A stretch of 11,355 nt of DNA from NCBI GenBank assembly GCA_051532055.1, contig JAOPTX010000074.1:1-11355 (forward strand). Direction: 5' to 3'. Both the position numbers and the translations under genes were made by a program. The stretch is from Fibrobacterales bacterium (lineage in GTDB: Bacteria > Fibrobacterota > Fibrobacteria > Fibrobacterales > JAOPTW01). How positions within the stretch are numbered: position 1 is the stretch's first letter; each line of letters begins with the position of its first letter. Below, piece after piece: positions 1-11,355 of the stretch. Under the pieces are notes generated by a model. The model made no database searches, had not been told where the DNA came from, and saw nothing but the letters and a program-made list of their open reading frames with translations.

Positions 1-1
1 T

Positions 2-2665
2 ATCATTATAGCTTGTCTCAATTGCTTTAATTAATTGGGCTACTTTTTCATTTTTCTTTTCAACTACTTTATCCCACCACATAACGAGTGCATCAACGCC
101 ATCTTCAACCATATCGACCACATCATCACACGCTTCTTCAATTTTCATCAGTACAAATTCAGAACCATCCTGCATTGCTTCTATGCTGGTTACTGCAATA
201 TCAGTAAGTAGTTGTATTTGAGCCCGTACTATGAGTTGGTACACATCTCCGGTAATTTCTGCAATATACCGAAAATTGACGTTATTATAAATGTGCATAA
301 CAAAATAATAGGCCTCTTTAAAGGCTAATTCAAACCCATACCCCACAGACCCCCCAACTTTTAGGGTAACACCTGCTTTGAATTTTACTTGTACGCCATT
401 AAGGCCGAGTTGCACTTTAAGAGTAAGATTGGCGCCAATTCCTATACTGCCCTCTGCAAGCATATACAATTTACCTATGCTTTTCCATTTTTCGTCTGCA
501 GCCCAGTTAAATGTTTTGTTCCATTGAAACTGTCTGTAAATTTGTGCGGTACCTTTTATGCCCGCAAAGGCTTCTGCAGTAACATCAACTGAAGCAGGAA
601 AAGTATCACCCTCTTTGACGCCTTTACTTTTCGCGGTTTTCTCAGTTTCTTTAATGGTGTGGCCACCAGGTTTTGATGCTTTACCCATGGTTGTTTCAGG
701 TGAGGGGGGCATTGCTAATGCTTCTTGAAGTACATTTTTAGATTTAGGGATACCGATTTGTGCTTTCCCTTTAACACTTATTGATGCACCGACGGTTACT
801 CCGAGTGATAATCCAAATTCAAACCGAATTTTTAGGTTTCCTGTGGCAAATGCAGGGGGTTTTGGTGGTGTGATTTCCGTGACTTCTGGTCCTGCAAGTT
901 CAAACTCTATCCGTCGGTTTTCGAGATTGACTTTGTCGTCTTGAAACGCATCAACTTTAGGACTTGTTTCACCCCAAGCCTCTGTAGGGCGGGATAGGTG
1001 AAATTCAATATCTATACTTTTTGTTGCATCATAATCAAAATAGGTCATGGATGACCAGATATTTCCTTTGGCAGCGGTGTACATGGTGCCAGGAGTCCAG
1101 CGACTCAACTTTTCACACAGTTTGTCACGGTAGAGGTTAAAGACAATTTTCCAGAAGTCTTCATCAGCCTCGTTGTTTTCATTCACCATGGGTACGACTA
1201 AGAGCGGGCCGGGCAAGAGATTATTTTGTTTATAATATTTTTCATTATAATCCCTTTTCAGGTTTATTATTGCATCCTTAGTTTTTTGGCCCATTGTATT
1301 GTCGGCTTCGCCAGGGTGGTAGTCGCCATCAAACCATTTACATAGAGCAATAAGAGACTCCTGACAGTCATCCACACGACTTTTTTCGGTGGCAATTGAG
1401 GTCCAGGCGTCAACATTACCCTCGATGAGGGCTTTAACACAATCAGCACGTTTTTGTGAAAGAGCCTTATTGTAGGCTGCTGGGCCACTTCTATCAGTGT
1501 GTCCATGAATTACGAGCTTTCGGTCAAGGCCAGATTGTTGGTAACTTCTGTAGGCGGTTACCATTTTTACGATAGCGTCTATACAATTACCGGCTTCTGG
1601 GCTTATGGCGGGTACTGCTGAATCCAGATTAAATTTTATATTGTCAGTGAGTACTACATCTGACCATTTCTTTTGTTCTTCCAAGTAATTAGTGAGATTT
1701 TTCTTTAACTCTGCTGCGGTTTTTTGAGATTGTCTCAATAAATCAAAGAGATCAAACCCTTCTTCTACAGGCAGAAAGAACTTGGCGGTAAATTCATCTT
1801 CAATGAGGTTGTAGCCTACTTCACCACCACCTTCAAAACTCGCATTCATCTCCTTAACATTGATTTCGCCTTTAGCACTTGCTTTGGCAAAATAGCGACA
1901 CGTTTGTGCTTTGTTTGAAATGCGGTACCCACTACCGGTTTGCCCTTTATTGAAGTCACTTATAAACGCAAATTTCATTGGCCAATACTGAGAGTCATCT
2001 GTATCAGGGTTGCCGTCATCAAAAGGGTTCCACTCTTTGAGGTCAAACGCAATCTTCGCATCAAGGTTGAAACCATGGGCTTCTGATTCACGTTCTGAAC
2101 CTAGATTCTTTTTATTTTCAATGGTGAGCTTTAATGAGTCAATAATGCGTTTGCTTACACAGTCTTCACCTTCCTCGGCTTTTTCTTCCTTTACTTTCAG
2201 TATGGCAATATCGGCAAGCTCTGTATCTCGGACATACACCATGGTCTCAAAGCCGCGTTCTTTCCAGATAGGATGCTTTTTGAGGAGTACGAGTTCAACA
2301 ATTTTGGTATCTTCATTAGGAAATAAACGATTAACAAGGGAATCGGCATTCTTTGCTGCATCTTCTACTTGTTCATGAGGTTTTTTGTTTTTTATACTTT
2401 CACGATCAGCGAGTATGTCTTTATGAAATTCTTCCATGGCTTCAACTTCATTAAGGAACGCATCGCGGACGTCAGTTTCGGAGTCTTCAAAAACCCAGTA
2501 CTCTTTGTCACCGGGGCAATAGAAAATCATTGATTTGTCGGTACTGACGGTAATAGATTGCTGATGTTGGTTTTGGGGACCGGTTTTCGTTATCTTTATA
2601 CCATCAGTTACCAGTTTGCCCTGTGATACATATTGAGTGTTTGAATCTTGTGCTGCTGTAGTCAT
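2..2665 (-). CDS. Large protein (>=888 aa, 3' end beyond the window) with an internal OmpA-like domain, a degenerate PG-binding insert and Gly-rich beta-strand regions; possible secretion-system effector
   Basis: Manual translation: ATG at 2665 (MTTAAQDSNTQYVSQGKLV...) stays open to position 2 (...KAIETSYND). It has no stop in the window, which explains its absence from the ORF track. Motifs: KFNLDSAVP, VIHGHTDRSGPAAYNKALSQKRADCVKALI (GHTD 1493-1504), PGEADNTMGQKTKDAI, AWGETSP, NRRIEF (NRRIE 906-920). Starts 24 nt downstream of the 2690-4183 gene. Confidence 0.9.
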   Translation of the reverse strand, partial: MTTAAQDSNTQYVSQGKLVTDGIKITKTGPQNQHQQSITVSTDKSMIFYCPGDKEYWVFEDSETDVRDAFLNEVEAMEEFHKDILADRESIKNKKPHEQVEDAAKNADSLVNRLFPNEDTKIVELVLLKKHPIWKERGFETMVYVRDTELADIAILKVKEEKAEEGEDCVSKRIIDSLKLTIENKKNLGSERESEAHGFNLDAKIAFDLKEWNPFDDGNPDTDDSQYWPMKFAFISDFNKGQTGSGYRISNKAQTCRYFAKASAKGEINVKEMNASFEGGGEVGYNLIEDEFTAKFFLPVEEGFDLFDLLRQSQKTAAELKKNLTNYLEEQKKWSDVVLTDNIKFNLDSAVPAISPEAGNCIDAIVKMVTAYRSYQQSGLDRKLVIHGHTDRSGPAAYNKALSQKRADCVKALIEGNVDAWTSIATEKSRVDDCQESLIALCKWFDGDYHPGEADNTMGQKTKDAIINLKRDYNEKYYKQNNLLPGPLLVVPMVNENNEADEDFWKIVFNLYRDKLCEKLSRWTPGTMYTAAKGNIWSSMTYFDYDATKSIDIEFHLSRPTEAWGETSPKVDAFQDDKVNLENRRIEFELAGPEVTEITPPKPPAFATGNLKIRFEFGLSLGVTVGASISVKGKAQIGIPKSKNVLQEALAMPPSPETTMGKASKPGGHTIKETEKTAKSKGVKEGDTFPASVDVTAEAFAGIKGTAQIYRQFQWNKTFNWAADEKWKSIGKLYMLAEGSIGIGANLTLKVQLGLNGVQVKFKAGVTLKVGGSVGYGFELAFKEAYYFVMHIYNNVNFRYIAEITGDVYQLIVRAQIQLLTDIAVTSIEAMQDGSEFVLMKIEEACDDVVDMVEDGVDALVMWWDKVVEKKNEKVAQLIKAIETSYND

Positions 2666-2689
2666 AGTTTATCTCAAAGTATTTAAAAG

Positions 2690-4183
2690 TTACCCTTGTT
2701 CTACAAGGAAAAAGTCAAGTTCAGTGTGTGCACCAATGGCGATAGATGCTTTACCTTCATCATCCAGTTCGCCGGTAAGTTCAGAATTATCAGGGAGCAC
2801 TATCTTATAGGCATGCCCTACAAGAGCTGCATCATGTTGATCGGTAAGGAAGACATCGAGATAATTCTCGCCGTCACGGGTTACAATTGCCAGATGGACA
2901 ATGTCAGAAATATCCTGATTATAGCTGTCAAATGCTTCTATGTCTATTTGTGGCGCAGCTGCAGGTATTGTGGGTGGATTAGGTCGGTCGTGGAAATGGA
3001 TTTCAACACGGCGATTACTTTCTGACTCAAATCCATCTAAACCAATCTGATCGATGGGGCAGGATTCACCACAGGCCATAATACCTTCATTATCGGCAAA
3101 AAACCGCGGCGTTATTCTGGTGGGATCTGCTTCTGACGCCACAAGAGCGAGTTCATACAGGGTATGAGCAAATGCTCCCCACGTTGCCGGTCCAATAAGC
3201 CCATCTTCGGTAAGTGATCCTGAGTAGTGAGTGTTATACTCTTCTTGAAAGCTTTTTACACCCGCCTGAGTATTTTCTCCATCGGCTCCATCGACTGTTC
3301 CAGGATCGCAATTCCAACCATATGAAGCTGCCAATGATTGTAATATCGTTTGATAATCAGTGACAGTGCTGTGGCCTTCAATTGCACTTGTCCATATATC
3401 CTGATCATTCGATATGAGTGCTTTAACTGCTTGTGCTCTTTTTTCTGAGAGTGCAAGGTTATGATCGGGCTCACCACTGGTATCAGTATGACCGAAACAT
3501 ACTATTTCTTTATCGGGAAATTCGCTCATATGTTTAAATGCAGCGCTCAAAGCGGATACGACACTTCCTGTTGTATCGAGGCATGGCACAGCACTGTTTA
3601 GGTTAAATACAGAGTCAAGAACTTCCACTATCTCAATTAGTAGTGTTGCATTAGGGAGTTCTATTGCCTCGCTCGCTATTTCGGTACCATCATCATCACA
3701 TGTGGCGATAAAGGTATAAGAGACCTTATCAGCAGCTGTTTTGTTTTCGGTGAAATAAAAGCCTTGGTGTTGAGCGAGTGGTATACAGGCTGTAGCGATA
3801 CCATTTTCGGGGGTAACTGAAATAGGCGAACCGCGTTCCTCTTCATCATTATAGCGCGCAACCATTGTGAGTACAATGCCAGGAGTACGATCAGTGAGAT
3901 AGTTCACTTCTACAGACACCTCTGATTCTTCATCAATGCGTGCAGCTTCTGAATCGCTAAAAACTGGATTGGTAAAAGAAACCAACTGTTCTTGAACCGC
4001 TTCCTCTTCTTCAGGCTCCTGGTCAGTCTCTTCTTCAATTGGTTCTTCTTCCTGAACTGTGGCACTGGTGCTAGAGCTAAAATATCCACCACCACCTGAT
4101 TTCTGACTATAACGGTGGTCATTATTAAAAGTATCGTCAAGTTTTGAGTGGTCTAAACGGTTTTTTGAATCTGAAAATATCAT
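2690..4183 (-). CDS. OmpA-like domain protein with an inserted peptidoglycan-binding (PG_binding_1-like) domain, acidic N-terminal linker and short C-terminal beta domain
   Basis: 497 aa ORF. Motifs: FNLNSAVP, CFGHTDTSGEPDHNLALSEKRAQAVK (GHTD 3482-3493), DPGTVDGADGENTQAGVKSFQ...LTEDGLIGPATW (PG-binding signature), ACGESCP, NRRVEI (NRRVE 3002-3016), and C-terminal YKIVLPDNSELTGELDDEGKASI. No signal peptide seen. Confidence 0.9.
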   Translation of the reverse strand: MIFSDSKNRLDHSKLDDTFNNDHRYSQKSGGGGYFSSSTSATVQEEEPIEEETDQEPEEEEAVQEQLVSFTNPVFSDSEAARIDEESEVSVEVNYLTDRTPGIVLTMVARYNDEEERGSPISVTPENGIATACIPLAQHQGFYFTENKTAADKVSYTFIATCDDDGTEIASEAIELPNATLLIEIVEVLDSVFNLNSAVPCLDTTGSVVSALSAAFKHMSEFPDKEIVCFGHTDTSGEPDHNLALSEKRAQAVKALISNDQDIWTSAIEGHSTVTDYQTILQSLAASYGWNCDPGTVDGADGENTQAGVKSFQEEYNTHYSGSLTEDGLIGPATWGAFAHTLYELALVASEADPTRITPRFFADNEGIMACGESCPIDQIGLDGFESESNRRVEIHFHDRPNPPTIPAAAPQIDIEAFDSYNQDISDIVHLAIVTRDGENYLDVFLTDQHDAALVGHAYKIVLPDNSELTGELDDEGKASIAIGAHTELDFFLVEQG

Positions 4184-4462
4184 AGGGGGAAATCATTTTT
4201 AATAATTAATGACCGAATAGATAAATAATTTTAGAAGGCTAATTGCTTTTGTAACATAATCTTTACTAAAATAGTTCTTACCAGCTGATACTCTATCACA
4301 GCTGGCTGTTGGACTCATTGCAATAACGGGGAGGTCACTATATATAGCAGTGTTCAGAGCGATTTGATGTTGTGAATTTGTATACAGTTGCTGTCCTCTT
4401 ATATGAGGGTGTCAGGAATGGTGTGCAAAACCGCCAGTGATATACTACACCCATTTGGCCAC

Positions 4463-4496
4463 AAAAAAGGTTACCCCCCGCTGGAAGTAACCTTTT
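4463..4496 (-). terminator. Rho-independent terminator-like hairpin, best on the minus strand
   Basis: AAAAGGTTAC (4465-4474) and GTAACCTTTT (4487-4496) form a perfect inverted repeat. On the minus strand the stem extends with G-U pairs and is followed by T6. Confidence 0.55.
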
Positions 4497-4677
4497 ATAC
4501 ATCTATTAGAGAAAGAGGGTACTGTTATTCAACAATACTGATATCCCATTGTTGATTTTCACCAGTATGTTGCGGTAGGAAATGAAAAAATATGAGTGTA
4601 ATTGCCTCATTTTGTCCGCAAATGTAATTTTCAATATAAGTTTAAGGCACACATACATACTGCTTTTGGGGACACGA

Positions 4678-6315
4678 ATGCATCAATTGTTAATACCGCG
4701 TATAGTCGCTGTTGTTTTTATTTCTATTTCACTTTTTCATTGCTCAACTGCTCTTGATGGAGATGATGCATCTCTGGTGAGTTCATCTACTGATGTTTCG
4801 GACTGCTCTTATGACTTTATATCGTATAGTCATTTATTGGGCGATGTTATTTCGAGCAGTGATGAGATGAGTAGTGAGTTAAGTTTTGATGAAGCATATT
4901 CTAGTAACGCTTTTGAAAATGAGGAGTTAAGTAGTTCTCTGGTGCTTCTTTCGTCTTCCTCAGAGATGGTAAGTAGTAGTGCGGTGAGTTCCTCTATAGG
5001 GCCATCAAGTAGCTCCCTGGTAGTTCTTTCATCTTCCTCAGAGATGGTAAGTAGTAGTGAGCCTGTAATGGTCTCTATGGTGCCTCCCCGGAGTTTTGTA
5101 GCAGATCAGCCGGGCAATATAAAAAATCAGGTCAGGGCGCAGCATCGTGCTTTTGATCAAACGCCGTTACAGTCAACGGGGTATTATGTGTTGGCCGGGG
5201 ATGTTATTACCGCTTCATACTCTTATACAGGGAGTGAGCCTACGGTGACTCCTCAGGTACTTATCCATGATATTTCTAATGAGAATGCTCTGTATACCAA
5301 TGAAGAATTTGTAACACTCTCTCAAGAGGGGACAACGGTTACTGCGGCTTATGATGGCATAGTCTATTTCTGTCTGTTTAATGAGCCTACTGATGGTGAG
5401 ATAACCTTAAACCTTGAGTCTGGCGGTAGGATTATGCCACGGTTTGTGTATAACTATCACCGTAATGAACATCTTGATACCATGATGGTTGAACATGCAG
5501 AGGCTCCTTGGGTTGAACTCGTGGGGAATTCTGCAATGGTCACGGCGACTATGGGGAGTTCGGTAACTCATATTGATGATCCAACTCATCTTATGGCTCT
5601 GTATGATACGATTATCGCGGCAGGTCAGGAGCAATACGGTATAAGCGAGGGTAAGGCCTATCCCCATGATCCAGTGAAACACAAATTTCATTTTGTAGAA
5701 ATTGCTCCTACTTCGAGCTATTATATGTTTTCATGGTTTTATCGTATGACTGCGAAACATACTGCCATTGAAAATTACCTCAATGCTGAATATATGAGAA
5801 CCAAAGCGTGGGGGATGTGGCACGAGTTTGGACATCAACTTCAAATGAAAACCTGGACATGGGAAGATCAAGTTGAGGTGACCGTAAATATTACTTCGGC
5901 CTATATTGAACAGTTATTAGGAAATGATTCACGATTTGAGAAGGATGGTCACTACGAAACAGTCTTTAATTATTTCAATCAAGGGAGTAAAAACTATCAG
6001 GATCTCGAGTTATTCCCTCGGGCCATTATGTTTTGGCAGTTGCGCCTCACTTTTGGAGACCCGTTTTATAAAACTATGGGCATGAATTATCGTAATTATG
6101 GTTTGGGTCCTTGGGATTATTCTGAGTCTGAGAAAAAACAGCAGTTCATTATTGAGGCAAGCCGTGTAGCAGGGTATGACCTTACGCCTTTCTTTGAACA
6201 GTGGGGTATTCCGGTTGAGTGGGCTACCAAGGCGACTTTAGCAGGTATGTCTCTGAAGGTATTAAGTGATCCTATTTGGCAAAATCGGGATACGAATATT
6301 TTGTATGTGTTGTAG
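4678..6315 (+). CDS. Lipoprotein M60-like (enhancin-related) zinc metallopeptidase with a Ser-rich linker
   Basis: WGMWHEFGHQLQ...WTWEDQVEVTVNI (HEFGH 5821-5835) fits the HExxH...E pattern of M60-like peptidases; N-terminal QSTGYY, APWVEL and C-terminal DLTPFFEQWG also fit. ATG 4678 is preferred over 4582 because GGGGA precedes it and it gives a lipoprotein-type signal (MHQLLIPRIVAVVFISISLFH-C). Confidence 0.85.
   Translation: MHQLLIPRIVAVVFISISLFHCSTALDGDDASLVSSSTDVSDCSYDFISYSHLLGDVISSSDEMSSELSFDEAYSSNAFENEELSSSLVLLSSSSEMVSSSAVSSSIGPSSSSLVVLSSSSEMVSSSEPVMVSMVPPRSFVADQPGNIKNQVRAQHRAFDQTPLQSTGYYVLAGDVITASYSYTGSEPTVTPQVLIHDISNENALYTNEEFVTLSQEGTTVTAAYDGIVYFCLFNEPTDGEITLNLESGGRIMPRFVYNYHRNEHLDTMMVEHAEAPWVELVGNSAMVTATMGSSVTHIDDPTHLMALYDTIIAAGQEQYGISEGKAYPHDPVKHKFHFVEIAPTSSYYMFSWFYRMTAKHTAIENYLNAEYMRTKAWGMWHEFGHQLQMKTWTWEDQVEVTVNITSAYIEQLLGNDSRFEKDGHYETVFNYFNQGSKNYQDLELFPRAIMFWQLRLTFGDPFYKTMGMNYRNYGLGPWDYSESEKKQQFIIEASRVAGYDLTPFFEQWGIPVEWATKATLAGMSLKVLSDPIWQNRDTNILYVL
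4929..5059 (+). repeat. Intragenic 53-bp direct repeat (period 78 bp) encoding the Ser-rich linker
   Basis: 4929-4981 vs 5007-5059 are 48/53 identical; both encode SSSLV[LV]LSSSSEMVSSS. Confidence 0.9.
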
Positions 6316-6498
6316 TGGGGAATGATACTGTAATGATTATACGCATTTGAGACGCTTTGGTTTGCTCTTGGGCTATCTTCCTCGTTACTTTAATGCTCAC
6401 AAATAGAGAGCGCTATAATAAAGCCGTTTAATAATACAAAACAAGTGTACTGTCATATTCATATCTTATGAGTAACAGATAAGTAATGGAAGTGCTGT

Positions 6499-7716
6499 AT
6501 GTATAAGTTGTATATGTTGATTGTTTTTGTTCTCTTTCTCGGGTGCAATGGTGTGATAGATTCAGAGGTGGCTAATGAGTCGAGTGCCCAAAGAGGTTCA
6601 TCTGATAGTGAGGTGTTGGAAAAAGAAGTTGATAATGACATTGATGACAATTGTCGTGCATTTGATGTTGATGGTATTACTAAAGATGGGTACTGTTTTG
6701 ACAAATATCGATATGACTATGAAGATGATGATGTTCTGGGGTATGCCTTTACGGGAACTTCTTGCGATAAGGTGTACGGGTGTGAATGTGAGGGGAAGGA
6801 TTGCGATAAGCTATTTGAGAGTAAAGTAGCGTGTTTAAAAGAGTATCAAGGTGATTGTTACGACTCTTTTGAACGGGAATTTTGCATCCATAATGATAGA
6901 GATTATAACGTAGATCAAGTGATTAAATCAAATCATCGGTGTGCTGCAGATCTCTATTGTGATGAAGGTGGTGTCGTTAAGGAGTTGGATGATGTGGAGC
7001 CTTGTGTTACCTGTACCAATCCTGATGGACAAGAGTTTGCAATTGGAGCAAAATATACTGATAATTGTGTTATCTATACCTGCAATGATTCTGGTGAGTG
7101 GAATTCTGAAGAATTAGAACAACCAGTCTGTGGTCTCGATGGTGTTGAATATAAAAATAGCTGCTCTTTGGATTCACCGGCCCTCTATAAAGGCGCTTGT
7201 CAGTCAGAGATTAAGTTCACCGATTTACATTCTGTTAAGATCTATCACTTTGATGGTTCGGTACTATCATCTATTGAAGAAACAAATTCGAATAGGTCGA
7301 TAATAGCTCTAAAACAATCGGTGAGTGTGCAAATGCCACAATGTGAATATATTCAAACCCTTGAGTATGAATTTAACCATAAAGAGCGGGGGGTTACGGT
7401 AACCCTTGCAGAGGAATGTGAAGAAGACTCGGACTATAATGGTGAGGGTGGCTGGTCTACTTTTGATCAGTATGGTGCAGATGTCTATGAACGTTTTGTA
7501 AAGGCTTATGAGTGGGAATCTTTATTTTACTACAATACAAACTGTGATAACGATCTTGAATGTGTAAATAAAAATAGTGAATCTTTTGTTTTTTCCTTTA
7601 ACACTCACTCATCGTATGTGACTATTAATGCTGGATACAAGTTACATCAAAGTATGGTATTGCTTGGTGATCCCTTTTTAGATCTTTTTAATGAGTATCG
7701 AAAAGATCATAAATGA
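6499..7716 (+). CDS. Cys-rich lipoprotein with a Kazal-like motif
   Basis: 405 aa. Signal MYKLYMLIVFVLFLG-C, many Cys, and PVCGLDGVEYKNSC...YKGAC (7123-7200), which resembles the Kazal core PVCGxDGxTYxNxC. Confidence 0.8.
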   Translation: MYKLYMLIVFVLFLGCNGVIDSEVANESSAQRGSSDSEVLEKEVDNDIDDNCRAFDVDGITKDGYCFDKYRYDYEDDDVLGYAFTGTSCDKVYGCECEGKDCDKLFESKVACLKEYQGDCYDSFEREFCIHNDRDYNVDQVIKSNHRCAADLYCDEGGVVKELDDVEPCVTCTNPDGQEFAIGAKYTDNCVIYTCNDSGEWNSEELEQPVCGLDGVEYKNSCSLDSPALYKGACQSEIKFTDLHSVKIYHFDGSVLSSIEETNSNRSIIALKQSVSVQMPQCEYIQTLEYEFNHKERGVTVTLAEECEEDSDYNGEGGWSTFDQYGADVYERFVKAYEWESLFYYNTNCDNDLECVNKNSESFVFSFNTHSSYVTINAGYKLHQSMVLLGDPFLDLFNEYRKDHK

Positions 7717-7799: not shown

Positions 7800-8027
7800 T
7801 TTTGAGCCGCTTTTTGTTGCAGTAGTATAAATGAAAATAGATAGAGTGCCCAATATACAAGCTGTCTTAACTTCATCGTGCCCCTCTATACCTATGAATT
7901 CCGGGAAGGGCTCAAGTCGTGTTGATGATGAGCGTGATATTATAAGCTTTTTGTGGGAATTTGATACTCTAGAATTATATATGGTGGTATGTGCTGGTGA
8001 AATTGGTACTTTGTATGGTATAAGCTC

Positions 8028-8052
8028 ACCTTCTGTATATTAAGAGTTAACT
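8028..8052 (+). other. attI-like recombination site 1 (start of mini-array A)
   Basis: ACCTTCTGTATATTAAGAG|TTAACT. GTTAACTGC (8046-8054) is the exact complement of GCAGTTAAC (8601-8609) at the start of the next attC. No upstream attC left arm is visible. 21/22 identical to 10481-10502. Confidence 0.7.
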
Positions 8053-8062
8053 GCGACCTAGA

Positions 8063-8584
8063 ATGAAAATCACACTCCAAGTAATTATTTTTCTTTCCAC
8101 TGTAATAATAGGCTGTTCCACTCAAATGGATGATCATAACCCAGAACCAACACCATGTAAAACTGGGCAAATATCTCATTTTCCAGAATTACTTGGGTGT
8201 TGGCATGCTCTGGATACTTTATACAACTATACGGATTCCTTACACTCATATGAATATTGTCAAACCTTGTGTTATTGCTCAGATAATTCTATGTACGAAC
8301 AATCTCCAATGGTTAATGATACAGGGATAGTTATGCAGGTATTAAGTTCTGGCTACATTGACTCCATATCCCAAAATTCATACTTATATAATTACACAAG
8401 AAATTTAACAATCAAAAATACTAGTCCTGACACGTTATATCAAGACACAACACAGTTTCAAATTACCAATACTGCCTTAACATTGCATACAAAACGAACA
8501 ACTTATTATCAACAGAACAACTTTTCAAGTCCTCTTTGCGAAGATCCAAACACATTTTTCGACAAAAATTTCAATACTAATTAA
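8063..8584 (+). CDS. Cassette 1: hypothetical lipoprotein
   Basis: 173 aa with signal MKITLQVIIFLSTVIIG-C; bounded by GTTAACT (8046) and attC1. Confidence 0.8.
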   Translation: MKITLQVIIFLSTVIIGCSTQMDDHNPEPTPCKTGQISHFPELLGCWHALDTLYNYTDSLHSYEYCQTLCYCSDNSMYEQSPMVNDTGIVMQVLSSGYIDSISQNSYLYNYTRNLTIKNTSPDTLYQDTTQFQITNTALTLHTKRTTYYQQNNFSSPLCEDPNTFFDKNFNTN

Positions 8585-8602
8585 GAAGACGGAAACTGCA
8601 GC

Positions 8603-8722
8603 AGTTAACAAACCGTTGCAGACGGTAATCTTCACTTCAAAAACAATTAATTAAACTCCCTCCGGTCAAACAATAATTAATTATTTTTAAAGCAAAGCTT
8701 CCGCTGAACTCAACCGTTATTT
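8603..8722 (+). repeat. attC site 1 (120 bp)
   Basis: R'' AGTTAAC (8603-8609), spacer AAACC, L'' arm GTT(G)CAG(A)CGG pairing with CCGCTGAAC leaving two extrahelical bases, AT-rich inner stem, R' GTTATTT (8716-8722). Confidence 0.9.
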
Positions 8723-8727
8723 TGCTT

Positions 8728-9168
8728 ATGAAACATCTGTTCATGATTCTTTTTTTCATCACCTTAACCAGTTGCGACTGTGTAACTACTAGTAGTTTTC
8801 ACATTCAGCTTTCGATATTTGATCAAAATGGCAACCCTATTAATGGTGCTACAATAAAGTTAAGTGAATACCAAAGGGATATTGAAAAAGACACCATTAT
8901 AGAGTTTTCAAATATTGACAGTTATTTTTATGACGAATTTCAAAGTGATTCATCAGGGATGATTTCTGCCAATTTGTCCGCTCAAACCGCAAAAAACTGT
9001 CCAAGTGTTACTGAAAATAACTCATCACTATTTGTTTTATCTGTTGCAATCAAGTGCTCGAACAATAAATGGCTTATACATGAATATAAAAACGGAACAG
9101 ATATGGAATATATTAACAATTCTAATATCATTGATTCTATTTATATTGATTCAGAATGCTTATATTAG
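8728..9168 (+). CDS. Cassette 2: hypothetical lipoprotein with a prealbumin/carboxypeptidase-regulatory-like beta motif
   Basis: ATG 8728 is preferred because TTG 8722 overlaps the attC R' box. Signal MKHLFMILFFITLTS-C; motif IFDQNGNPINGATIKL...SDSSG. Confidence 0.78.
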   Translation: MKHLFMILFFITLTSCDCVTTSSFHIQLSIFDQNGNPINGATIKLSEYQRDIEKDTIIEFSNIDSYFYDEFQSDSSGMISANLSAQTAKNCPSVTENNSSLFVLSVAIKCSNNKWLIHEYKNGTDMEYINNSNIIDSIYIDSECLY

Positions 9169-9182
9169 GATTTACGTACACA

Positions 9183-9300
9183 AAATAACAAACTGTGGAG
9201 TCGGAATGTCCACTGCATTTTAAAAATAATTTACTCCCTTCGGTCAAACAATAATTATTATTAAAACACCGCGGCCTTCCGCTCAACTCAACCGATATCT
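9183..9300 (+). repeat. attC site 2 (118 bp), degenerate
   Basis: R'' AAATAAC (9183-9189) and 3' arm CCGCTCAACTCAACC. Shares ACTCCCTYCGGTCAAACAATAATTA with attC1. R' reads GATATCT (9294-9300) instead of GTTATCT, and the L'' arm is 1 nt shorter than in attC1 and attC3. Confidence 0.85.
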
Positions 9301-9387
9301 GGGGTCTGATGACAGAAGCTCTGTGTTTTTACCACCAAATCAACCAAAATTACACCATTTTTTATAAACTATATTAGAATAATTATG

Positions 9388-9428
9388 AATACAAACGAAT
9401 AAAATGTATTTTGTAGTAAAACTGAGGA
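9388..9428 (+). promoter_or_regulatory. Putative TA promoter/operator and RBS
   Basis: Inverted repeat AATACA (9388-9393) / TGTATT (9405-9410) overlaps a -10-like TAAAAT (9400-9405); RBS GAGGA at 9424-9428. TA cassettes typically carry their own autoregulated promoter. Confidence 0.45.
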
Positions 9429-9432
9429 AATT

Positions 9433-9675
9433 ATGTCTAAAACCATTACGATTCGTTTAGAAGAAGAGAAGTACGAGCTGTTTAAAAAGTTTGCAGAAAT
9501 GGACAATAGAGCCATTTCAAATTTCATAGAAACTGCGACTTCCAGATATATAGAAGAAATTGAATACGCTGACGAGTTTGAAATGGCTGAAATTAATTCC
9601 AACGAAGACTTACAAAAATCATTAAAACGCGGACGTACTGATGTAAAGAAAGACAGGAGACGTCGCATTGCCTAA
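9433..9675 (+). CDS. Cassette 3: type II antitoxin, ribbon-helix-helix (CopG-like)
   Basis: 80 aa. MSKTITIRLEEEKYELFKKFAEMDNRAISNFIE is an RHH pattern followed by an acidic segment. Has an RBS and overlaps the toxin gene by 8 nt. Confidence 0.88.
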   Translation: MSKTITIRLEEEKYELFKKFAEMDNRAISNFIETATSRYIEEIEYADEFEMAEINSNEDLQKSLKRGRTDVKKDRRRRIA

Positions 9676-9946
9676 ATATGATGTCTTCATTGCCCACGAA
9701 TATGATAAACAGCTAAAGAAAATTACAAAAAATGATAAAGCTTTAATTGAGAAGAAAATGAAAGAATATATAATTCCTCAATTAAAGTCTGAACCTCATT
9801 TTGGATCAAATATTAAAAAGCTTAAAAATTATGATCCTCCTACTTGGCGATACAGAATTGGTAAATACAGAGTTTTTTATGAAATCGATTCTGAGAGGAA
9901 TGAAATTGATGTTCTAACTATCTCACAACGGAAAGATGCGTACTAG
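9668..9946 (+). CDS. relE: Cassette 3: type II toxin, RelE/ParE family
   Basis: 92 aa basic protein with TTG start; IKKLKN...WRYRIGKYRVFYEID...VLTISQRKDAY is a typical RelE signature. Confidence 0.9.
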   Translation: MPKYDVFIAHEYDKQLKKITKNDKALIEKKMKEYIIPQLKSEPHFGSNIKKLKNYDPPTWRYRIGKYRVFYEIDSERNEIDVLTISQRKDAY

Positions 9947-9958
9947 ATGAAGCGCCCC

Positions 9959-9997
9959 AGATAACATCTATACGCCCTCTCCAAGTCACGTAAAAAA
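9959..9997 (+). repeat. Non-attC array-terminal motif, copy 1
   Basis: AGATAACATCTATACGCCCTCTCCAAGTCACGTAAAAAA; 9961-9997 aligns to 11316-11351 at 32/37 columns. It begins at the R'' of the TA cassette but lacks the attC L''/L' arms. Confidence 0.75.
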
Positions 9998-10052
9998 ATG
10001 ATTCACCGCAATTTGTTATACTCAACTTCTCACTTCCGCTCATCCCCATTAA

Positions 10053-10286
10053 TCACCCAATCCGATTCTTTCGCTTCAAATATTGTTTCCTACCATAGTC
10101 ACTATTAAATTGTTTGCGGATACTTGGGGCGTTGCAAAAGGTAATATCGGCCCAGTCACCGGGGGCTATCAGTAGGTTTATGATCTGGTCTCGGATGCTT
10201 TTATTCTCTTTCATCTGTATGATGGCAAAGTGAACGGTGGCCTCGAGGCTAGAGATTTCGTTGACGAGGGGTGATGACCATTCCAT
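10053..10286 (-). CDS. Small hypothetical ORF in the inter-array spacer
   Basis: 77 aa with no recognisable family and no well-spaced RBS (GGAGGAG lies 24 nt upstream); may be a fragment. Confidence 0.3.
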   Translation of the reverse strand: MEWSSPLVNEISSLEATVHFAIIQMKENKSIRDQIINLLIAPGDWADITFCNAPSIRKQFNSDYGRKQYLKRKNRIG

Positions 10287-10480
10287 GCTTCTGTTTTAAG
10301 TACCCGAGTACTCCTCCGGAAATGGTGTTTATAATGTAAAGGGAATTATAAGGTGGTCGGTATAATGCCATTATTTGGTATTATCCATTGGAAATGGTTT
10401 AATTCAATTGGAATGAGTGTTCTAAAGTGGGGAAGGGTACTGGATTATTTGGAAATTGCTAGATTATTTATCATAAACCA

Positions 10481-10505
10481 ACCTTCTGTATAATAAGAGT
10501 TATCT
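10481..10505 (+). other. attI-like recombination site 2 (start of mini-array B)
   Basis: ACCTTCTGTATAATAAGAG|TTATCT. GTTATCTGGC (10499-10508) complements GCCAGATAAC (10877-10886). Ungapped similarity to site 1 extends upstream (10452-10483 vs 7999-8030, 21/32). Confidence 0.7.
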
Positions 10506-10509
10506 GGCC

Positions 10510-10854
10510 ATGTGCACATATTTTAAATTTATCACACGTAGCAAACCACCTGAAAAAAGTAGTTTTATTATAGACTCACTTATAAAAGTTGCATCGTTTA
10601 TTTTTCCACAGGCAAACCCTGACTATGATGATAAAATCGGTAATGTATCTTATTGGTTTATTGAATGTGGCGATGAAGGATATCCATATCGTGAAATTGG
10701 TTTTGATGCAAATGACAACATTTTGTTTAAAGGTCCGAACAAACGTAATTATGGATATTGGTTAGACACAGATATGACAGATGATCATTTTGAAAACCAT
10801 AAAGATTGTGAGGAAATTTCTGGAAAAACATTTGAAGACATGTGGAACAAATAA
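10510..10854 (+). CDS. Cassette 4: hypothetical protein
   Basis: 114 aa ORF filling the cassette; aromatic/acidic motifs NPDYD...YWFIE...PYREIGFD...NYGYWLD; function unknown. Confidence 0.82.
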   Translation: MCTYFKFITRSKPPEKSSFIIDSLIKVASFIFPQANPDYDDKIGNVSYWFIECGDEGYPYREIGFDANDNILFKGPNKRNYGYWLDTDMTDDHFENHKDCEEISGKTFEDMWNK

Positions 10855-10879
10855 CCCTTTTTCGTTTCGATAAACAGCC

Positions 10880-10996
10880 AGATAACAAACCGTTTGAGTC
10901 GGTAATTGCAAATGCCCACAAAATAGATATTCGCGATCCGCTCCAATTTATCTATTTTGTGGACATCAGCAATTCCGCTCAACTCAACCGTTATAT
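10880..10996 (+). repeat. attC site 3 (117 bp)
   Basis: R'' AGATAAC; L'' arm GTT(T)GAG(T)CGG pairing with CCGCTCAAC; perfect 14-bp inner stem CCACAAAATAGATA (10916-10929) / TATCTATTTTGTGG (10949-10962); R' GTTATAT (10990-10996). Confidence 0.92.
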
Positions 10997-11019
10997 TGGG
11001 TGTGTCACGTAGAAGTATC

Positions 11020-11229
11020 TTATAGCGATGAATCTGTCAGATAAATTATTATGAAACCTATAAATATCAGAAATGGCATTATCATCATAGCAAATAATCG
11101 CTGCCTAGAATGCCATGATAAAACATCATCACCATTATGAAGTTTACTTTTATGAATTCTATATGCTACAATTGCTAGGATAATTGAAACTGCCTGAAAG
11201 CCGAAGTACCCAACAAATACCATTTTCAT
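11020..11229 (-). CDS. Cassette 5: small membrane protein (2 hydrophobic segments), reverse orientation
   Basis: 69 aa with two hydrophobic stretches separated by a polar loop; the only sizeable ORF between G10990 and C11320. Confidence 0.6.
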   Translation of the reverse strand: MKMVFVGYFGFQAVSIILAIVAYRIHKSKLHNGDDVLSWHSRQRLFAMMIMPFLIFIGFIIIYLTDSSL

Positions 11230-11313
11230 ACCGTGATTAAAGACTTTTCAAATAATTTAGTAATCAATATACTTCTTAGCACGCAGGAAATGATGTTGTT
11301 TGAGAAAGGCCCA

Positions 11314-11351
11314 ATATAACATCTAGATGTCCTCCCAAGTCAAGTAAAAAA
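11314..11351 (+). repeat. Non-attC array-terminal motif, copy 2
   Basis: ATATAACATCTAGATGTCCTCCCAAGTCAAGTAAAAAA. CCCAATATAAC (11310-11320) is the exact complement of GTTATATTGGG (10990-11000). The window ends 4 nt later. Confidence 0.72.
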
Positions 11352-11355
11352 TAGT

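Follow-up and report, generated by a model that had tools for sequence, protein, structure and literature searches.

The window analysed here, 11,355 nucleotides (nt) making up the whole of contig C74 of a marine Fibrobacterales genome (G000; 5.17 Mb in 181 contigs, 39.6% G+C), carries at positions 8028-11355 part of a chromosomal integron cassette array with no integrase gene beside it. The array is punctuated by two conserved motifs, from here on referred to as L, found at the start of cassettes, and R, found at their end. On balance, we consider it probable that the region comprises two sub-arrays, each headed by an attI-like L and each closed by a cassette with an attC into which an insertion sequence (IS) has inserted, and that it does not comprise modules with a dedicated pair of sites. 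The names borne by the closest protein relatives place G000 in the Fibrobacterales. Comparisons were made with a sister genome (G001), the sole other member of the genus compared.

The order of elements is L1, cassette 1, attC, cassette 2, attC, cassette 3, R1, a 533-nt interval, L2, cassette 4, attC, cassette 5, R2 and the contig end, with the five cassettes occupying the window from 8046 onward (Table 1). The L copies (8028-8049 and 10481-10502) are identical at 21 of 22 positions and the R copies (9961-9997 and 11316-11351) at 32 of 37, with one 1-nt gap. Searches for L at up to 3 mismatches and for a degenerate R 19-mer each returned two window matches, where 200 shuffles gave an expectation of 0.00 in both cases. 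The start and the 3' end of each of the five cassettes are complementary to one another (over 9, 9, 11 with one mismatch, 10 and 11 nt for cassettes 1 to 5), and the bases following the cassette end are AAAC.. (attC) in cassettes 1, 2 and 4 and ATCTA.. (R) in cassettes 3 and 5. All details of the motif copies, the array order and the end complementarity that an earlier preliminary description of this DNA had reported are thereby confirmed. A genus-specific covariance model, for which 16 attC sites of the genus served as training rows, the three window sites among them, scores those three sites highly (Table 1) and everything else in the window at 15 bits or less. RNAalifold recovered 10 pairs from these 16 sites, among them the expected R-box/L-box pairs; 3 of the 10 show compensatory changes, and the bottom strand folds more stably than the top (-19.3 vs -14.0 kcal/mol, n=16).

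No integron integrase (IntI, gene intI) was found among the window proteins in a comparison with Pfam. The arrays had been described as integrase-less, which holds locally and fails genome-wide: G000 encodes a single intI above the curated cut-off on contig C108 (C108:7927-8862, minus strand; 372.6 bits vs 265, NCBIfam TIGR02249). The open reading frame (ORF) of this gene (C108:7909-9282, locus L062) is open for 458 codons compared with 315 model positions and carries about 125-140 residues N-terminal to the modelled part; the intI match of G001 covers model positions 85-313 only. The first cassette on C108 begins about 220 nt beyond the intI start codon, after TTCTTTATAATAAGA/GTTATGTG (here and below, a slash marks the junction), shows 9-nt end complementarity, ends in ..CACACATAAC and is followed by a canonical attC. 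Judged by its position, the TTCTTTATAATAAGA/GTTATGTG site is the attI of this integron. The L2 core is identical to it at 21 of 23 positions and the L1 core at 17 of 19, the latter match being reached by 1 of 300 shuffles. When the 220 nt upstream of the L2 junction are aligned with the C108 intI-proximal region, the L2 core itself is the best local match and scores 36 (shuffle mean 18.9, maximum 27, reached by 0 of 300 shuffles).

L also behaves at its junctions as an attI would. The attI1 of classical integrons has a simple site with the crossover at G/TT, and L abuts a G/TT cassette start (GTTA) in 22 of 29 copies, the remaining seven being one-base variants. L regions fold weakly (mean -4.5 kcal/mol for the top and -3.6 kcal/mol for the bottom strand, n=29), as would be expected of a double-stranded attI-type site but not of an attC, and the attC covariance model has no match at L in the window. 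The candidate explanation that L is half an attC was rejected, as none of the 29 copies has a stable fold. An nhmmer search of G000 with an L profile built without the C108 site returned eight places, namely seven training copies and one new one (C57:578). L1, L2 and six other places in G000 have no adjacent intI, and only the C108 copy lies between intI and a first cassette. In this genome L heads cassettes at the intI locus and also on C74 (twice), C31, C57, C72, C82 and C30; no matching cassette end was found for the L on C30 or for the degenerate L at C57:578. L is thus best described as a putative attI-like docking core at the cassette start, as the preliminary description had proposed. 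One copy has an unusual setting: C72:14760-15800 (locus L056:1742-2800) holds a split copy of geneP, a gene treated further below, preceded by about six iteron-like words (CTATCCATA and variants), and about 0.9 kb beyond it L heads a cassette, a layout that mimics intI-attI with geneP in the place of intI.

R is recognizable from its sequence as the transposase-distal (right) end of an IS110/IS1111-family insertion sequence, or as a relic of such an end. On contig C119 (1,680 nt), R runs unbroken into about 450 nt of non-coding sequence and an opposite-strand gene for a 348-amino-acid transposase with the Pfam domains DEDD_Tnp_IS110 (PF01548, 1.2e-12) and Transposase_20 (PF02371, 2.4e-20). In array orientation the element starts directly after a cassette end (..GCTAAC/ATCTA-TATGTCCCCCC) and finishes in GGGGGACATA-ACTAATATC/AAATCGTTGGAGTCGG, the latter being the remainder of a canonical attC; its transposase gene runs antisense to the cassettes. 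It has 10-bp subterminal inverted repeats (TATGTCCCCC and GGGGGACATA) and, taking AAC/ and /AAAT as bounds, terminal extensions of 9 and 5 nt. In the parts of the published accounts covered here, the subterminal inverted repeats of IS1111 elements are put at 11-13 bp and their extensions at 7 (or 6) and 3 bp, a seekRNA is described as encoded in a long non-coding region that lies downstream of the transposase gene (PMC11187229), and IS1111-attC elements are described as inserting near the attC 5' end, antisense to the cassettes (PMC3001079). The 10-bp repeats and the long non-coding region of C119 fit the IS1111 branch approximately. Comparison of the approximately 450-nt non-coding region with the target gave only one shared 6-mer, which is uninformative. 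Against PLSDB plasmids, the C119 transposase is 44-49% identical to IS110-family genes (maximum 49%), the top matches listed being mostly from marine gammaproteobacteria, with one Candidatus Manganitrophus record. A second, decayed IS110-family transposase fragment lies beside an attC at C30:32633-32839; it is 47-65% identical over parts and contains stop codons.

Contigs C74, C108 (the intI contig) and C157 end in R, C157, C32 and the minus end of C31 open with the IS left end followed by an attC remainder, and the ends of C119 overlap C157 at both sides, so C119 is best read as a collapsed multi-copy element. The assembled sequence thus shows intact IS copies that occupy canonical attC sites, where they immediately follow the ..TAAC (R'') box and run antisense to the cassettes. 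In the window, R1 agrees with the right end of C119 in 69 of 91 alignment columns with no transposase behind it (nhmmer E = 1.2e-17 with an R profile that includes R1 itself), and R2 matches the same end over its whole length (Table 1). Summed contig depth over the R2 bin is 2133 vs about 428 in unique bins, a crude measure of about 5x that fits a repeat. In the tabulation of R junctions suggested in the preliminary description, made for G000 and G001 together, 20 of 29 follow TAAC and the other nine one-base variants of it (offsets corrected by eye). The possibility that R is a hidden attC was rejected, since the covariance model gave R and its downstream sequence a best score of 9.1 bits (E = 2.7, minus strand). 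R had been put forward as a conserved non-attC right site, and non-attC it is, but it is not an inward-facing integron site; an ordinary IS end accounts for half of what had seemed new.

The relation between the two motifs becomes clearer in G001. This genome has its own intI; L has at least 15 matches in it and R at least 32, and no IS transposase match was found. It is rich in R-L fusions and in non-coding modules that end in L, some with R and some without, and whole arrays consist of them. In the array on G001:C11 seven L and six R alternate regularly, with R-L units of 270-390 nt, and the alternative given in the preliminary description, according to which a repeated R...L element takes the place of an attC, describes this anatomy well. 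G001:C31 carries like units both with and without R. In an R-less unit the cassette ends in ..CATAAC and is followed by a 22-nt short attC-like piece (AAGCTGTGTTTAAAGCAAGAAC), to which GCTATCAGCG.. and a conserved non-coding stretch of about 330 nt with L at its end are joined. The 22-nt piece is also found by itself between cassettes, on G000:C57 and close to the G001 intI. Of five such module starts, two lack R, and in three an R relic of approximately 38 nt is inserted precisely at AAC^ of the short piece; R can hold up to about 240 nt of the IS right end. These arrangements point to R as a secondary invader at its usual target and to L as the 3' terminus of a non-coding module with its 5' edge at a next-cassette start position. 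Since L-modules exist without R, L and R are not a matched pair. Besides the attC class of about 115 nt, much shorter inter-cassette sites were observed (G000 C57:1962-1995; G001 L035:4465-4510 and 4530-4565; G000 C31, minus strand), one class being about 29 nt long (AAC-AAACTGTGTTAAAACCAAGAAC) and the other about 40-85 nt and starting with AAAACGTTCTTTTAGAC.

Comparison of the two genomes shows cassette turnover at L-type loci; the arrays are alive, or were until recently. One cassette shared by G000:C72 and G001:C11 (96.9% identical over 509 nt) stands behind different L types and is R-ended only in G001. At the orthologous locus of G000:C57 (1-4395) and G001:C31, the flanks are 94% identical, the arrays measure 1.9 kb vs about 14 kb and the cassettes differ between the two species. 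The conserved flank there includes the right-hand R relic and the 5' part of the module. The left boundary of this locus carries the 3' part of the module, as if the array had split one module.

The reading we favour can be put as a sequence of steps. IntI from C108, acting in trans, would presumably insert cassettes at L, and the IS, as its intact copies show, inserts into attC right after the ..TAAC box, antisense to the cassettes. R2 would most likely be such an insertion in the attC of cassette 5, leading into an intact element; the contig probably stops at R2 because of the IS repeat there, and R2 is cut off at 11355 because the window is the whole contig. R1, 85 nt long, would be what is left of an older insertion into the cassette 3 attC. 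The anatomy suggests that the rest of that older IS and of the attC was lost, which would have fused R1 to a geneP fragment and to the L2 module, the latter now heading the next sub-array.

Four other explanations were weighed. Brackets made of L, one or more cassettes and R recur on C74 (twice), C31 (once, around a single cassette) and C57 (once), with both junctions precise, as if they were self-contained cassette modules with two dedicated, inward-facing sites, both used by IntI in trans. Such modules are nevertheless very unlikely, as R is continuous with an intact transposase-bearing element with matching subterminal repeats, fails the attC score and also occurs in canonical attC sites whose remainder follows the element. 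The pairing of L and R as brackets proposed in the preliminary description further falls with the L-ending modules that lack R, and its right bracket of the second mini-array is the contig end, an assembly break at the R repeat. The whole R...L unit might alternatively be a giant attC-like site used by IntI, its ends pairing in single-stranded DNA. It does stand in the place of attC between cassettes, and the minimum-energy fold of the 555-nt unit in the window pairs 5' CCAGATAAC.TCT.ATAC with 3' GTAT....AGAGTTATCTGG; however, the 5' arm is the IS subterminal repeat region, and most of the 9-bp outer stem of the window unit is contributed by the cassettes on either side, a stem that the G001 units do not show. 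Given also that R-less units exist and that, among R-L pairs, the L arm varies while the R arm is constant, with no compensatory change seen (by eye, with no formal count), we hold a giant attC to be highly improbable.

An unlikely but less easily dismissed explanation sees R...L as a non-autonomous IS derivative, similar to a miniature inverted-repeat transposable element (MITE), with L as its left end and the transposase acting in trans. The many copies with precise junctions on both sides, the long stretches of IS right end held by some R relics and the presence of copies in G001 without a transposase would all be accounted for. L is, however, unlike the IS left end and has no subterminal-repeat partner near its junction, its core matches the attI beside intI instead, the target on the L side would be GTTA.. 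compared with AAAYCG.. at real insertions, and modules without R exist. Finally, L could be only a conserved promoter or 5' leader common to cassettes and no recombination site at all; type-b L copies indeed carry TGgTATAAA about 25 nt upstream of the junction. We regard this as quite improbable, because L always ends exactly at the G/TT cassette boundary and matches the intI-proximal insertion point, and because a promoter scan at L is not above chance.

Several observations weigh against the reading of L-headed sub-arrays ended by IS insertions. The similarity between L and attI is confined to about 23 nt, the L profile built without C108 finds the C108 site at only E = 4.6 over 20 nt, and the similarity of L to the G001 attI is non-significant, with 41 of 300 shuffles reaching the score for L2 and 12 of 300 for L1. 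The promoter scan finds 17 sites vs 16.2 expected, with none at L on the plus strand. The extensions (9 and 5 nt) and repeats (10 bp) of C119 depart from the published values given above. No attC or IS left-end remainder was found between R1 and L2, nor in the five G001:C11 R-L units inspected, and the reading does not account for the joint origin of precise AAC/R and L/GTT junctions in many units. The R copies of G001 are unaccompanied by a transposase match and have well-conserved tips, which is odd for inert relics. The assembly ends within R2, and the use of L by IntI is presumed from sequence.

A further and more tentative proposal, which we consider possible though doubtful, is that L-modules are mobile ORF-less 'head' cassettes with an attI-type rather than an attC-type site. 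Circular L-modules would then insert via attI x attC recombination at the R' end of any attC, both in arrays and at scattered chromosomal sites, and the position of the module 5' edge at a cassette start fits this proposal. Each insertion would make a new docking point and perhaps an expression point, so that one IntI could serve many intI-less arrays. An attC-seeking IS would subsequently hit the attC just upstream and produce the R-L fusions.

The component kinds assembled here are already known, namely CALIN-type arrays (attC-site clusters without an integron integrase), IS1111-type attC-seeking elements and ORF-less cassettes. Within the parts of the sources covered, the IS1111-attC group (ISPa21, ISPst6 and ISKpn4; IS110/IS1111 family, seekRNA-guided) resembles the present element in its DEDD transposase, in having inverted repeats in subterminal position and, downstream of the transposase gene, a long non-coding region (PMC11187229), and in its one fixed insertion point near the attC 5' end, antisense to the cassettes (PMC3001079). 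The host here differs, being a member of the Fibrobacterales, and the nearest listed plasmid transposases (at most 49% identical) are not from Pseudomonas or Klebsiella. Extensions are 9/5 nt and not 7/3 (PMC11187229), and many short right-end relics are here fused to another module.

CALINs are, in the part of the source covered, defined by attC sites only (PMC4889954). As in CALINs and sedentary chromosomal integrons, the array is bounded by attC sites, has no adjacent intI with an intI elsewhere in the genome, differs in cassette content between related species and includes a toxin-antitoxin cassette. It differs from CALINs in that its sub-arrays are headed by an attI-like core, which recurs inside arrays on non-coding modules. 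The L core resembles a classical attI in standing at the first-cassette start, in its GTT crossover triplet, in lacking hairpin potential and in being near-identical to the site beside intI; in contrast to a classical attI, at least eight L copies in G000 are not beside intI and some lie between cassettes. L-modules resemble ORF-less cassettes in being non-coding units of about 230-550 nt between coding cassettes with a 5' boundary at a next-cassette start, but end in an attI-like core and not in a folded attC. In the parts covered of the literature searched on IS1111-attC elements and integrons, no description was found of repeated attI-like cores heading intI-less arrays or standing between cassettes, nor of the frequent fusion of such cores to IS-end relics replacing attC.

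If the spare attI-like cores work, cassette capture in this lineage would not be limited to the site beside intI, and many chromosomal loci and deep array positions could take up, and perhaps express, new cassettes. This would bear on how CALINs are built and kept. The occurrence of attC-targeting IS1111-type elements is extended to Fibrobacterota, and short IS relics replacing attC should freeze the adjoining cassettes in place.

The interval between R1 and L2 contains a minus-strand ORF of 77 codons (ORF77) that is a relic, the C-terminal fragment of a protein family of about 262 amino acids named geneP here. It is 66% identical to a full-length gene on G000 C3 (tblastn), and G001 encodes two further full-length members; copies that are split or truncated occur close to other L or R motifs on C72, on C110 and in G001. 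Window positions 10041-10508 are 83-84% identical to three places in G001, each of which continues into cassettes with canonical attC, and the geneP fragment copies of G001 contain stop codons and a 12-nt indel. A large protein library yielded 324 representatives of the family at E ≤ 0.001. Pfam returned no family for the first member and five unrelated single-member matches among 60 members, none of five members matched a PHROG family, and a protein atlas held unnamed clusters only. The structure model is all-helical (predicted local distance difference test, pLDDT, 95.1), with no match in the PDB at E ≤ 0.001. No homologue of ORF77 was found in a word-indexed protein search, and its candidacy as an IntI remnant was rejected for lack of similarity (E = 17).

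Positions 1-7716 of the window hold ordinary genes, identified with Pfam as those for two OmpA-domain proteins, an M60 peptidase and a Kazal-domain protein. The M60 peptidase gene is kept in G001 (76% amino-acid identity); synteny stops just after it, with no L, R or attC there for an empty-site comparison at the window locus. The search for excised circles and empty sites suggested in the preliminary description came back empty: in the assembled contigs of one sequencing run, possibly from the source sample, the joints fall at repeated attC and L sequences and show no excision and no empty sites. The R-spacer-L stretch has matches in two of 41 genomes, G000 and G001. An exact R 27-mer occurs among genome contigs in only two, both from one Fibrobacterales metagenome-assembled genome (MAG), and a degenerate L 18-mer occurs at 76 loci in metagenome contigs, which is guessed, not computed, to be about chance level. 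None of 78 fetched metagenome and genome loci has R or attC except the two Fibrobacterales MAG contigs, and the only longer L match among them (L080) reads as coding sequence. Outside the genus, neither L nor R was found in the 41 genomes or in the genome and metagenome contig k-mer searches.

Table 1 Features of the cassette array in the window.
Feature	Position	Strand	Details
L1, 3' part of non-coding L-module	7984-8049	+	Core 8028-8049, junction G 8046; adjoins chromosomal genes; nhmmer L profile E = 1.8e-16
Cassette 1	8046-8609	+	ORF 8063-8584, 173 amino acids, no Pfam family; 9-nt end complementarity
Canonical attC 1	8600-8724	+	Covariance model 113.1 bits; compensatory R-box/L-box pairs in 16-site alignment
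Cassette 2	8716-9189	+	ORF 8722-9168, 148 amino acids; 9-nt end complementarity
Canonical attC 2	9180-9302	+	Covariance model 101.6 bits; R' box GAT, not GTT
Cassette 3, toxin-antitoxin pair	9294-9965	+	11-nt end complementarity, one mismatch
DUF6290 antitoxin of cassette 3	9433-9675	+	Pfam E = 1.8e-06
ParE-family toxin of cassette 3	9668-9946	+	Pfam E = 8.9e-09
R1, relic of IS right end with degenerate subterminal repeat	9966-10050	+	Directly after ..AGATAAC of cassette 3
geneP relic, 77 codons	10053-10286	-	tblastn paralogues
Non-coding part of L2 module	10287-10502	+	attI-like core 10481-10502, junction G 10499
Cassette 4	10499-10886	+	ORF 10510-10854, 114 amino acids; 10-nt end complementarity
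Canonical attC 3	10877-10998	+	Covariance model 109.6 bits
Cassette 5	10990-11320	+	Minus-strand ORF 11020-11229, 69 amino acids; 11-nt end complementarity
R2, first 35 nt of IS right end	11321-11355	+	33/35 identical to C119 right end

Further observations concern individual cassettes. The 5' crossover triplet of cassette 3 is mutated, with GAT in place of GTT at window 9294-9296. Because of this mutated triplet, together with the disruption of its attC by the IS, cassette 3 with its toxin-antitoxin pair is probably fixed in the array. The sequence ..AGACGGAAAC closes several unrelated cassettes 6-9 nt 5' of the R'' box (window 8588-8598; G001 L021 and L034) and may represent either a conserved stretch extending the recombination site or a common terminator. 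The R'' box of cassette 3 (CCAGATAAC) and the R' box of cassette 4 (GTTATCTGG) show perfect 9-nt complementarity (window 9953-10508), exceeding that of the three canonical attC sites of the window, which could be due to chance or could be a trace of how the unit formed.

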